This document shows, in pieces, positions 32,801-38,800 of a DNA stretch of 56,117 nt. A program made the position numbers. The first letter of the stretch is position 1; each line of letters starts with the position of its first letter. This DNA comes from a virus (lineage: Duplodnaviria; Heunggongvirae; Uroviricota; Caudoviricetes): IMG/VR virus record IMGVR_UViG_2671180349_000008. One strand, 5' to 3'.

Positions 32801-35800
32801 AGGCAGCTATAACTGCACTTATCAACGGTGCGCCTGGCACACTGGATACGCTGAAAGAAATAGCGGCTGCGATCAATAACGACCCGAATTTCAGCACAAC
32901 TATCAACAATGCTCTGGCTCTTAAAGCTCCTTTAGCAAGTCCTGCATTAACGGGAATACCTACTGCGCCTACGGCTGCACAGGGCACAAACAATACGCAG
33001 ATCGCTACGACTGCTTACGTACGGGCTGCTATCTCTGCATTGGTCGGCTCATCACCTGAAGCTCTTGATACCCTGAATGAGCTTGCAGCAGCACTGGGCA
33101 ATGACCCGAACTTTGCGACAACAATGACAAATGCGCTGGCAGGGAAACAGCCACTTGATGCAACTTTAACCGCGCTTGCTGGTCTTGCGACAGGTGCAAA
33201 TAAATTGCCGTACTTTACCGGTACAGACACTGTTTCTCAGACTGACTTAACGTCAGTCGGTCGCGATATTCTGGCCAAAACAAGCGTTCTTGCTGTTATC
33301 CAATACCTTGGTTTAAGAGAACTCGGTACCAGCGGTGAAAAGATCCCCCTGTTGAGCACGGCTAACACATGGAGTGCACGCCAGACTTTCAACGGTGGGA
33401 TCACCGGGGCGCTGGCGGGGAACGCCGACACCACGACGAAATTAAAAACAGCCAGAAACATTAATGGCGTCAGGTTCGATGGTTCGGCTGACATTAATAT
33501 CAATACTCTGGTATCTCGCGGTCGCGTAACGGCCCTGGAGGCGAATGCACAGGGAACATCCGGGATTCAGCTGTATGAGGCATACAACAATGGCTACCCT
33601 TCTCCCTATGGGAATGTGCTTCACCTTAAAGGTGCCACCGCTGCTGGCGAAGGCGAGTTATTCATTGGCTGGAGCGGCACGAGCGGTGCCCATGCGCCCG
33701 TACATATCCGTTCGCGGCGGGATACTGATTCTTCCAATTGGTCTGACTGGGCGCAGGTCTATACGTCAAAAGATTCAATTCCCGGCGTCAATGCCAAAGG
33801 GGATCAGGATACCTCCGGCAATGCTGCTACGGCGACCAGATTGCAGACGGCGCGCACTATTAACGGTGTTTCGTTTGATGGTTCTAAAGATATTGAACTT
33901 AACCCACGGTCTATAGGCACAATCAACTCCACAACAATGTCTTTTAGTGGTGGTGCAGGATGGTTCAAGCTGGCAACTGTAACCATGCCGCAGGCAAGTT
34001 CTGTTGTTTCAATTACGTTGATTGGTGGCGCGGGATTTAACGTGGGGTCACCTCAACAGGCAGGTATATCTGAACTTGTTTTGCGTGCAGGTAACGGTAA
34101 TCCGAAGGGGATTACTGGTGCTTTATGGCAGCGCACATCGACAGGGTTTACAAATTTTGCCTGGGTTAATACATCTGGTGATACTTACGATATTTACGTT
34201 GCAATCGGAAATTATGCGACTGGTGTAAATATTCAATGGGATTATACCAGTAATGCCAGCGTGACGATTCATACGTCACCAGCATATTCTGCTAATAAGC
34301 CGGAAGGGTTAACGGACGGTACAGTTTATTCACTCTATACGCCATCAGAGCAGTTTTATCCGCCTGGCGCACCAATCCCGTGGCCATCAGATACCGTTCC
34401 GTCTGGCTATGCCCTGATGCAGGGGCAGACTTTTGACAAATCTGCATACCCGAAACTTGCAGCCGCTTATCCGTCAGGCGTGATCCCTGATATGCGTGGC
34501 TGGACGATTAAGGGCAAACCCGCCAGTGGTCGTGCCGTATTGTCTCAGGAACAGGACGGCATTAAATCACACGCCCACAGTGCCAGTGCATCCAGTACGG
34601 ATTTGGGGACGAAAACCACGTCGTCGTTTGACTACGGAACTAAATCAACAAATAACACAGGTGGTCATAATCACGGTGTTGGTGAAAATGTTTCTGTCAG
34701 TGCCGGCAGTGGCAAAACAGTAAATATGAGTACCGGCACCGTAAATCTTTACACCAAATCTGCTGGTGCGCATGCGCACACTGTCGGCATTGGTGCTCAT
34801 ATGCACACTGTTGCTATTGGTTCACACGGACACACCGTCACTGTTAACGCTACTGGTAACGCAGAAAACACCGTCAAAAACATCGCATTTAACTATATTG
34901 TGAGGCTTGCATAATGACTTTTAAAATGAGCGATAAAGCACGGACCATTCGTGTATTTAATTTTCTTGAAGATACAAAAGAATTTATCGGCAGTGGTGAC
35001 GCTTATATACCGCCTCATACCGGATTACCCGCAAACTGTACGGATATTGTACCGCCGGAAATCCCCGAAGGTTTTACAGCAATGTTTGATACTGCTGACA
35101 ATTCATGGCGTCTGGTTGAAGACCATCGGGGGGAAACGGTTTATTCAACAGAAACCGGAAATGCAGTCCCGATATCTGAACTGGGGGAACTTCCTGAAAA
35201 TGGCACATTTATTGCACCAGACGGAGAATACCAGCGCTGGGATGGCAGCCAGTGGGTGACGGATGAAGAGGCGAAGCGTGATGCGCTGATTAATCAGGCG
35301 GCAGAAAAGAAAGCCAGCCTGCTGAAACAGACCGGAGAACAAATCGCAATCTTACAGGATGCTGTTGATTTTGGTGAAGCAACACCAGAGGAACAGGAGC
35401 AACTGACAGCCCTCAGAAAATTACGAATAAAGTTAAATCGTATTCAACCGAAAAATGCACCAGATATCGACTGGTCAGACTTTGAATAAATTCCACAGCC
35501 GCCAGCAGGCGGCTTTTTATCATTCAGAGGCTCTATGTCTGTATTAATTTCAGGGGTGCTGATTAATGGCGCTGGCGTTCCGATGGCGGAATGCAAAATT
35601 TATTTAGATGCACTGGTTAATACCAGTGAAGTGGTTATTGAATCATTTGCGGTTATTGAAACTGATGCGGCGGGACAGTATGCCTTCGAAGCGCAAAAAG
35701 GCAAATACACTGTACATATTAAGCAAAAGAACGGCCCTAAGTGCTGCGTGGGTGATATTTCGGTTTACGACGACTCAAAGCCCGGCACGCTGAACGACTT

Positions 35801-38800
35801 TCTGACTGCCCTCGATGAAGGCGATTTAAAGCCTGATGTCGTTAAACGCTTTGAGGAAATGGTGGCGCAGGCGCAGCAGAGCGCGGAAGCGGCAGCGGAA
35901 AGCGAACAACAGGCGGGGCAACATGCTGAAGCAGCATCCCTGATAAAAGAGCAGGTTGGAACGCTGGCAGATAATGTTCAGCAGAATGCAGAAACTGTAG
36001 CAGCCAGCAAACAGCGCGTTGAACAGCTGGCCTCAGAAGTTGAGCTGAACGCCGGGCAGGTACAGGAGGGGGTGCAGAATGTTACTGATGCGGTAAAAAA
36101 GGCGCAGCAGGCAGCAAAGGATTCTGCTGACAGTGCCACAGATTCGAAAAACAGTGCTGACAATGCGGCACTGAGCGAACAGAACGCACAAAAACACGCG
36201 CAGAAAGCTGAACAACACGAGCAGCAGACTAACCAATATGCGCAGGATGCAGCAACGGCAGCAGAATCAGCAGAGAACGCCAAAGGCGAAATTGACAAAA
36301 TTCTGGAAGGTGGCTATCTCAAAATAAAAAACAACTTTCAGGAAATTGTTGATGCTGGCCCATCTGCACTGGCTCAGGCCCAATATAATTTACAGATTTC
36401 CGGGGTGAAAAATAAACGGGTAATAGCCACCCCTTATACATGGCCGTCCAGAGCTGACTATGAGCAAAGGGAGCATCTGGCACTCGCCGGAGCTTACGGA
36501 TTTGGTTACACGTTTGAAGACAAAAGCCAGGGGCGAATAAACCTTCATGAAGGTTACACTGGTTCCTGGTGGTCACAGTGGGTAAAGCCGGGGCGTTATT
36601 ACGTTACAACCAGTGATAAACAATATCTGACACCAGACGGGGGCACGTACGGAGTTGTTGATGCGCTGTGGCTTAACGGTAACGCATATAATGACGCTTC
36701 GCAGGTTCATAAAATACTGGCTTTTTACGATGCTGACGGATACCTGCACATAGGCAGACGCACAGGTCAGAGCAACGGGTCAATAAGCTGGCGCAAGCTG
36801 GCATCGCTCTCTGATGTCAGGGCCATGCTGTATTCATATATTTATAATAATTACAACAGAGAATGGCGTGACCCGGAGCTGGGAGGTTTAATTCTGGCGT
36901 CATACCAGGGAACCGCAGACGGCGACACAAATATAAAAGTATCCCGTGGTCAGACTTATCCCGGCTCACGACTTGCACCTGTGGCGATAGAATGCCAGTT
37001 CACTCCATCCGGTACGTATGCCGCAACTCCGCGATTCTACATTACCGGCTGCAAGAGCAAATCACTCCCCGGAACTTATATTTCATTGTCTGGCGCGCCT
37101 ACAACATACAGCGACCAGGCATTTGTTGCGTTATTCATGAGGATTGCATGATGCAGATAAAAGAAATCACCAGTCCCCGTTATACCGAATCCGGTGCGAT
37201 TGACTGCGATGTTCTGTTTGAGGGAATGGAAGCCCCTGTTCCCTACACTGCCACACCAGAAGACACGGCAACAACAGGTCAGCAAATCTGGCAGGAACTG
37301 CAAAGCGGCAAATGGGGTGAAATAACTCCGTTCACCGTCACGCCGGAACTTATCGCAGCGGCAAAAGATGCTAAAAAGCGGGAAATCGAGGTATGGCGCA
37401 CAGAACAGGAAGCGCAGCCGTTCACCTTTGAATGGAACGGCCACACCTGGAACGCTGGCCCCGACTCAATGACCCGTCTTTATCCTGTGGTAATGGCTGC
37501 AAAATCTGATACGGCACGAACCGCCCTTGCGTGGGGTGACGCCGATAATCAACAGGTGAAACTGTCAATGTCGGAACTGGAAGAACTGGCAGCAGCAATG
37601 GCGCAGGCGCAGGTCGATCGCAACGACGAGATTTATCAACGCCAGCGGGAGATGAAAGAGAGGTTGAGCAACCTGAATGATTTACGCTCAATCCGAGCGA
37701 TGGCGACCAGCAGTAATTAGCGGTCAATTCTGGGCTTTTTGGCTGCGCGCTCCCCGCCCAGAATTGCGCGTCAATTAGCCCAGAAAAAAACGCGAAGTTA
37801 CAATCAATTGGCCGCTTTGCTTACACGATGCTGAGTGCGCCTGCAGAGCTGGAACGGGAAAATATTATTGAAAGAACGCGTGCAGGATTGGCTGTGGCAA
37901 GGGCTAACGGCATGATAGGAGGACGCCGTTCAAAACTGACACCAGAGCAATGGGAGCAGGCCGGACGTTTATTAGCGCAAGGAGTCCCCCGCAAGCAGGT
38001 CGCATTGATCTACGATGTGGCTCTGTCAACTTTGTATAAAAAACACCCCGCCAAACGAACGTGCATAGAAAGTAACGCTCAAACCAATTGAATCGGTCGG
38101 CAACACAGATTGATTGTGCCCCAATAGCCACACTCAACCCACGATGTTTTTTTAGATAGTGGCGAATTGATTTAAAGGAGGTGAGATGAAATCAATTCGC
38201 TGTAAGACCTCCATTTTCCAACATCACAACCAAGTAACGCTGCTGCCCGCAAAATGATCTAACGTCCATACGACCAGGGTGTCACCTCTGGAAAGCATAC
38301 GGAGTACCTTTTTTAACCCAGGGCGCTCAGCCTTTTTGCCGCTCGCCTTGTCCTCAAAAATTAGCTCACATCCTGCGCTTTCAAGAGCGTTTCGTTGTAA
38401 AGCAGTGTTTTGTTCATTTGTTGATACGCGTACATAGCCTATTAGCATATTTTCTGCTCACTATCGTTATTTATAGCAAGCTGCGGATTTTAATTAACAA
38501 AAACCAGTATGTGTGGAAATCACAAAGTACATACCGTTTCCCAATGAGATTTAATTCACTATTGAGGAAATAGTTATGTTTGATTTCACAATAATGCTCC
38601 TCTCCATCCTTGGCGGGGTGCATTCGTTTCTGAATGGGGTTCGTGAAAAACGTTACGAAGCGTCATGCAGGCAATTGATGGCCGAGTGTATTGCTGCCGT
38701 ACTTGCAGGCTTTATAGGCATGTATTTCGCGGAATATAAGGGTATGGATGAAAGTCTTCAGAATTGCGTGACTATTATTTGCTGCATCAATAACAGGCTC

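Follow-up and report, generated by a model that had tools for sequence, protein, structure and literature searches.

A Mu-like phage right end in a P1-like plasmid prophage, with a collar-type second tail fibre as its likely passenger

The subject of this report is a 56,117-nucleotide (nt) stretch of DNA, hereafter the window: contig CYBW01000029.1 of assembly GCA_001283845.1 (IMG/VR record IMGVR_UViG_2671180349_000008), whose backbone is a P1-like plasmid prophage with about 97% identity to many E. coli P1-like plasmids. Behind its tail fibre gene S and the fibre assembly gene U lies a second fibre gene, encoding a protein of 538 amino acids (aa), followed by a helper gene encoding a 190-aa protein of the DUF4376 family. 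We found that the segment that holds this pair, 34771-37802, is the right end of a Mu-like phage to its last nucleotide. On the right, this segment is fused to the middle of the invertase gene pin, and on the left, it merges into an S gene of P1 type. We consider it likely that the Mu-like right end was captured through transposition followed by recombination, with the second fibre as a passenger. Both protein families are well populated and already annotated; the novelty lies in their setting and in the way the block was captured.

The order of features on the + strand is the late promoter LPs, R, S, U, a 45-nt spacer with a GC-rich hairpin and a T-run, and the open reading frames (ORFs) of 538 and 190 aa. 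The 190-aa ORF is followed by an 87-aa C-terminal invertase fragment (+), a 74-aa N-terminal fragment of the invertase gene cin (-), and lydC. The second fibre gene is thus co-directional with S and stands in place of the inverted Sv'/U' cassette, as an earlier note on this DNA had it.

A Mu-like genome end beside S

The segment from 34771 to 37802 forms one continuous alignment of 3,035 bp, 96.7% identical, to three copies of a Mu-like prophage, each of which occupies its own chromosomal site (loci L017-L019), and over the last 1.25 kb (36550-37802), identity to these three is 100%. The prophages of UMNF18 and STEC316 match the block further, at 85 to 92%. In UMNF18, an S tip, Tfa, a 538-aa PF08400 protein, and a DUF4376 protein end a prophage, and the same right-end layout is found in STEC316 and four further prophages. 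The donors carry genes for the Mu transposase (C-domain), a MuB-type AAA ATPase, Mor, the gpT head protein, and the Gp45/46/47/48 baseplate proteins. S, Tfa, the PF08400 fibre, DUF4376, and the right terminus attR are the native right genome end of E. coli Mu-like transposable myophages. The earlier note had described the module as lambdoid; it is instead the terminal right-end module of such a myophage. A lambdoid origin was rejected, since the nearest relatives are Mu-like and the lambdoid matches are limited to the DUF4376 gene or to an N-domain of 42 to 45% identity.

The block closes with an 82-bp terminus (37721..37802, +) that is 100% identical to that of L017-L019, carries CAATTCTGGGC repeats at 37725-37735 (+) and 37756-37766 (-), and ends in ...GAAGTTACA. 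The same ACA end occurs in five chromosomal prophages (L003, L010, L016-L019) and in the SerU-LTIIb remnant (L014); seven different flanks adjoin it in all. In every case, homology stops at ...GAAGTTACA, with unrelated host DNA beyond. Since homology ends at this point in seven different flanks, position 37802 is the last base of a Mu-like phage genome. At the opposite side, the left ends of two prophages begin TGTGGGGT...CAATTCTGG (also read TGTGGGGT..GATCAATTCTGG), and a CAATTCTGGGCGG motif is common to the left ends and the right end of the donor prophages.

The Mu-like DNA in the window is an end fragment, not an element. When every donor ORF was searched with phmmer, no other Mu-like gene turned up in the window. 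The transposase genes, the left end, and the target-site duplication are all absent. One isolated further copy of the end motif lies at 16250, which is within chance expectation.

Immediately beyond the terminus, position 37803 picks up pin of Salmonella phage SJ46 ("ATCAATTGGCC..."), and from there the sequence stays about 95% identical to SJ46 through the cin stump and into lydC. The 3' remnant of the SJ46-type pin (37803..38091, +) is 94.7% identical to SJ46 pin from nt ~294 and holds HTH_7 and the tail of the Resolvase domain. It keeps an ATG-initiated ORF of 87 aa (37828-38091, +) that is essentially the HTH_7 DNA-binding domain.

The left side of the block lies within S (31948..34914, +; 988 aa; Pfam Phage_fiber_2 and Collar), which is a mosaic. 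Sliding identity against P1-like and Mu-like sequences showed that S is SJ46-like up to 33321, the Sc part; that 33298-34644 is the Sv type of other P1-like plasmids, at 93 to 100% identity; and that the tip is Mu-like from 34771 onward. Between the last two, 126 nt within the His-rich tip of S (34645-34770) had no match among the P1-like plasmids or Mu-like prophages compared, and may come from a third source or be hypervariable DNA inserted where recombination joined the two. U (34914..35489, +; PF02413, Caudo_TAP, E 4.5e-32), which assists assembly of the S fibre, is a Mu-like allele, with 96 to 100% identity to Mu-like prophages against 56 to 84% to the alleles of P1-like plasmids. Judged from these identities, the S fibre of the plasmid is now fixed, and its tip, like the U that matches it, is of Mu type.

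The donors' own S ORFs are intact, with 327 and 344 aa, and fill the interval between the Gp48 and Tfa genes. This led us to drop the idea that the second fibre is a stand-in for a dead donor S. PGAP/RefSeq flags these S genes as partial pseudogenes (L003 14128-15111; L010 5082-6116). UMNF18 also holds a P2-like prophage remnant (L003 25595-27570) with its own 467-aa PF08400 fibre and DUF4376 gene, directly after late control gene D and beside the host gene potB; the Mu-like prophage of this strain sits within tail fibre gene H of that same P2-like element.

Capture of the block and the inversion switch

According to the mechanism we propose, transposition would first have placed a Mu-like phage in the pin gene of a P1 plasmid resembling SJ46. 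The homologous S tips, now present as direct repeats, would then have recombined and so deleted about 35 kb of Mu-like DNA; the U, U', and Sv' of P1, the other cix site, and the beginning (5' part) of pin would have gone in the same deletion. The pair of second fibre and helper would have arrived as passengers. This scheme predicts an intermediate with a whole Mu-like prophage in pin, its left joint reading ...AGCACATCA followed directly by TGTGGGGT... (in longer form, ...TTAGCACATCA followed by TGTGGGGT...). Because the pin remnant runs unbroken into the SJ46-specific arrangement, the target was most simply the plasmid's own pin.

Two observations weigh against this scheme. Transposition within the plasmid is read from one junction only, since the left end and the target-site duplication are gone. 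The second concerns the repeats around the donors. Mu itself makes a 5-bp target duplication. The two Mu-like prophages that were checked are bracketed by 4-bp direct repeats, GATG and CCCT, and no 5-bp duplication of Mu type was found in either. The repeats lie at L009 2150-2165 and L003 17999-18004 for one prophage and at L013 2925-2935 and L010 8800-8805 for the other.

The block could instead have come without any transposition into the plasmid, by double homologous or illegitimate recombination with a chromosomal prophage that already bore a Mu-like end beside a pin gene, or by microhomology joining. A single Mu-type junction survives, with the target duplication lost to view; the Mu end and the SJ46 pin have the 3 nt "ACA" in common at the right joint; and Mu-like prophages do insert within other prophages. 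All of this would suit such a route. However, the right joint coincides exactly with the final nucleotide of the Mu-like genome, which is also the boundary in seven other contexts, and the pin remnant runs unbroken into SJ46-specific pin, the cin stump, and lydC at uniform identity. We regard entry without transposition as improbable.

The arrangement is rare. Six identical contigs, forming one clonal set, carry it, and it is absent from 72,556 PLSDB plasmids and 5,426 complete E. coli genomes. When INPHARED was searched together with these two collections, no record covered at least 80% of 34800-38700, and the best matches were chromosomal. No other PLSDB plasmid has this type of N-domain, the best being 67%. 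Two PLSDB records with a lambda-type Stf N-domain, NZ_CP104294.1 (Stenotrophomonas) and NZ_CP068597.1 (Paenibacillus), are each 48,499 bp, the length of the lambda genome, and look like lambda control DNA deposited as plasmids.

The source is a short-read draft assembly, and the arrangement could be an artefact, in which a P1-like plasmid and a chromosomal Mu-like prophage were wrongly joined through the S/U repeat; S tips and U are indeed repeated in many E. coli genomes. But the right joint, from the Mu end to pin, is in unique sequence and is not repeat-mediated. Moreover, five contigs that were assembled independently from different samples, one of them in a Logan assembly, show 100% identity over the 4.4 to 7.4 kb that span the two joints. 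We give misassembly hardly any credence.

Phages of the P1-like plasmid type carry out generalized transduction and can bring resistance genes with them; inversion of the C segment is their normal means of switching host range. In the window, the crossover site in S, TTATCCAATACCTTGGTTTAAGAGAA (33296..33321), was located by alignment to the annotated P1 cixL. Pattern searches with up to 3 mismatches found no second cix site in the window, and there is no inverted Sv'/U' cassette in it either. Neither invertase is whole. What is left of P1 cin is a 5' remnant (38224..38448, -) encoding 74 aa of the N-terminal catalytic part, with Resolvase positions 2-80 of 145; the 87 aa left of pin comprise HTH_7 and the last 29 positions of Resolvase. 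The region of the cin stump is 97% identical to the cin and lydC region of P1, and SJ46 has the same stump. A lost or truncated cin has been noted before in natural P1-like plasmids (PMC6906374). Since one cix site remains and both invertases are stumps, the fibre locus is locked and the switch dead. The absence of an inversion switch, which the earlier note had proposed, is thus borne out by the single cix site, the 74-aa N-terminal fragment of cin, and the 87-aa C-terminal fragment of pin.

If the proposed mechanism is right, this lineage shows a natural route by which a Mu-like jump into an invertase gene destroys the switch and replaces the fibre tip in one stroke. The fibre homology of P1 and Mu, long known, is what would enable the follow-up recombination.

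The second fibre and its helper

The second fibre gene (35535..37151, +) encodes a 538-aa protein that matches phrog_2636 "tail fiber" (E 1e-201) and, with aa 1-134, the whole length of PF08400, "Prophage tail fibre N-terminal" (E 4.9e-50). Residues 1-93 align with residues 1-93 of lambda Stf in PDB entry 9e7m (E 4e-17), with 42% identity in structural alignments; 7kjk is a further PDB match. The lambda-Stf-type N-terminal domain ascribed to the protein in the earlier note is therefore real. In the AlphaFold2 (AF2) model, this collar-type domain (aa 1-~95; nt 35535-35820, +) leads into a long shaft of helices (aa ~100-258), and aa ~330-538 (nt ~36522-37148) form a beta-rich C-terminal domain, for which the PDB held no convincing fold match. 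PF08400 is the only Pfam match of the protein, which has no Phage_fiber_2 repeats and no gp37-like distal tip; PF03406 is present in 759-aa sister proteins. BLASTP found nothing in common between the 538-aa protein and S, so the reported lack of kinship between its C-terminal part and the S variable part also stood. Taken together, the gene pair is an accessory tail fibre and a DUF4376 helper, and the fibre has a ring-collar anchor, a coiled-coil shaft, and a distinct beta-rich tip.

Comparison with other fibres of this family separates the anchor from the tip. The whole protein is 95% identical to protein P0001 of Mu-like prophages. Identity of the N-domain is 95 to 97% among Mu-like prophages, 62% to phiP27 and the P2-like remnant, and 42% to lambda; by this gradation, the domain tracks the type of virion. 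The tips form types that are 26 to 34% identical between types, and the N-terminal 65 residues of the DUF4376 proteins follow these types in part. Tip types with partial co-variation of the helper are what would be expected of receptor-binding fibres with cognate helpers. The phiP27 pair (L015 8796-10831, L56/L57) is an exception to the co-variation of the other pairs: its DUF4376 protein is 91% identical to that of the window over the first 65 aa, while the fibre tips are only 30% identical.

The helper gene (37148..37720, +; 190 aa; phrog_1141) matches PF14301 with aa 71-175 (E 8e-16). Its ATG overlaps the TGA of the fibre gene (ATGA), an arrangement of translational coupling, and a DUF4376 gene lies directly 3' of the PF08400 fibre in all seven contexts examined. 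The earlier note had called the protein a Tfa-family chaperone. The family assignment did not hold: Pfam matches PF14301 only, whereas the neighbouring U matches PF02413; BLASTP against U gave E 0.35, hhalign gave a probability of 0.3%, and there was no structural match in the PDB. The sole link between helper and U is a common weak match to phrog_1807. The DUF4376 alignment used for hhalign was shallow (Neff 1.3), and a very distant kinship with Tfa remains compatible with this result. As for function, DUF4376 proteins have been shown to be needed for fibre function elsewhere, the examples being the H-fibre of Campylobacter CJIE1 and gp27 of Alteromonas V22 (PMC7882524, PMC10579305). Because members of the family serve fibres in these other phages, "chaperone" is a fair guess, and we presume that the 190-aa protein is a fibre chaperone.

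We then considered how the pair could be expressed. LPs (AAGTTACTT-N4-TACAAT; 31453..31471, +) is an exact match to the P1 late-promoter pattern, which was derived from the annotated LPs, LPdar, and LPsit of P1. It lies 5' of R (31502-31936, +), which in turn precedes S. The only other exact late promoter nearby is LPdar at 38877, leaving LPs as the sole one upstream of the fibre genes. No P1 late promoter was found directly 5' of the second fibre gene, and no sigma-70 promoter was found between U and this gene. The sequence GAAGTTACA (37794-37802) was tried as a -22 box of the AAGTTACTT kind and rejected; no -10 hexamer follows it, and the likeness is probably a coincidence. A terminator scan identified an intrinsic-terminator-like hairpin (AGCCGCC-AGCA-GGCGGCT, then TTTTAT; 35497..35520, +) between U and the second fibre gene, which begins 17 nt after the hairpin and T-run. 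The RNA fold of the hairpin has -20 kcal/mol and a z of -3.9. With a hairpin ahead and neither a late nor a sigma-70 promoter of its own, the pair would be transcribed in P1 only by read-through from LPs.

The donors give an idea of what the fibre does at home. Two fibres at once, the arrangement suggested in the earlier note, is by gene order the native layout in the donors and in phiP27. There, the protein probably serves as a second receptor-binding fibre that is made constitutively and is attached in the manner of a collar. In Ur-lambda, 12 copies of Stf form a collar around the gpV/gpM junction (PMC12617516). The collar spike of XM1 consists of six trimers on the neck proteins gp4 and gp5 (PMC10457771). 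Structural alignment finds the fold of the N-domain also in the neck fibre gp82 of cyanophage A-1(L) and in the tail collar fibre of mycobacteriophage Bxb1. XM1 and A-1(L) are the contractile-tailed phages with a solved structure to date, and both have the anchor at the neck. These solved relatives point to the neck as the anchor place on contractile tails, and the collar fibre of the Mu-like donors possibly sits there as well.

In the P1-like plasmid, the second fibre is most likely a hitch-hiker, and its use on the virion is putative; that it is a passenger strikes us as a probable reading. A different possibility is that the P1-like virion makes use of the pair as a second fibre, produced alongside S and giving two receptor specificities at once rather than in alternation. 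The pair is co-directional with the R-S-U operon driven by LPs, two-fibre layouts with this pair are the rule in Mu-like prophages and in phiP27, the collar fold has adapted to a number of virions unrelated to one another, and a functional second fibre would compensate for the lost inversion switch. Yet the gene of the second fibre lacks a late promoter and has a stable terminator hairpin ahead of it. Its N-domain is of the Mu-like type at 95 to 97%, with no sign of adaptation to P1. When all donor ORFs were compared with P1 and the window by phmmer, the only matches besides the pair itself were S and U, so that S and U are the only donor virion genes with a P1 homologue. No homologues of gpV or gpM were found; the donor phages and P1 alike are contractile-tailed. 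The searches found the arrangement in a single clonal set of contigs only, and the route of arrival explains the presence of the pair without any selection. We therefore think it rather unlikely that the pair works as a second fibre.

Some of the evidence nonetheless speaks against a mere passenger. Both ORFs are intact and coupled through the ATGA overlap, and the second fibre gene has a good ribosome-binding site, which fits continued use; their intactness may merely reflect a recent event, since the six carrying contigs are identical. The hairpin does not exclude expression in P1, because the same hairpin is conserved in the donor prophages, which presumably express the gene. The gap in docking partners at the sequence level is weak evidence, since collar domains dock on differing partners in lambda, XM1, A-1(L), and Bxb1. 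That P1-like virions assemble a Mu-type collar fibre, perhaps in the form of a ring around neck or tail, is doubtful in our estimate. If it does take place, a phase-variable one-fibre phage would have turned into a constitutively dual-fibre transducing phage, and the PF08400 collar would be an adaptor that can be carried between lambda-like, Mu-like, P2-like, SfV-like, and P1-like particles. A fibre that works on P1 would also exemplify the portability of fibre modules, which could be of use in the engineering of transducing particles.

Other cargo and comparison with known systems

The window holds further genes of note. A GC-rich (0.59-0.67) foreign segment inserted in the P1-like backbone at 50000-56117 carries a mercury-resistance (mer) operon, with MerR at 50029-50598 (-) and a MerA-like reductase at 51684-52967, and adjoins a lysozyme gene at 48869-49525. 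After hxr, at 46969-48081, lies a gene for a 370-aa porin of the OmpC/OmpF type (Porin_1, E 4e-148); IS1 fragments are found just upstream of the porin gene in related contigs.

Among known systems, the closest is the right-end module of E. coli Mu-like prophages (such as those of UMNF18 and STEC316 and those carrying P0001), which has the same gene order and the same 82-bp terminus. The difference is that in the window, a 3-kb fragment of it is grafted onto a P1-type S in a plasmid prophage. The Stx2e phage phiP27 has, in L54-L57, the same order of fibre, Tfa, PF08400 fibre, and DUF4376, closing a Mu-type baseplate cluster, and its DUF4376 protein is 88% identical to that of the window. Its fibre tip, however, belongs to a different type, with 30% identity in the last 200 aa, its N-domain is 62% identical, and it is an integrase-type phage without a Mu-type end.

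With Stf/Tfa of lambda (Ur-lambda), the second fibre shares the PF08400 collar domain. In contrast to Stf, it has neither Phage_fiber_2 repeats nor a gp37-like tip, its helper is DUF4376 and not Tfa, and it is natural to contractile-tailed phages, in which the tube/tip junction is covered. The likeness to gp40 of Vibrio myophage XM1 and gp82 of A-1(L) is limited to the N-terminal anchor, gp40 being modelled for residues 1-126 only. Second fibres with the lambda Stf collar anchor are widespread and little studied, and occur in E. coli Mu-like, SfV/phiP27-like, and P2-like prophages.

The C-segment system of P1 and the G-segment system of Mu occupy the same locus, and the S/U homology of the two phages permits exchange of host-range modules. 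MuhP1, a laboratory hybrid of Mu with the host range of P1, is reportedly a product of this fibre homology. Compared with MuhP1, the exchange in the window would run in the reverse direction, from a Mu-like phage into P1; it is natural, has a joint of the transposition type, and has abolished inversion rather than swapped it.

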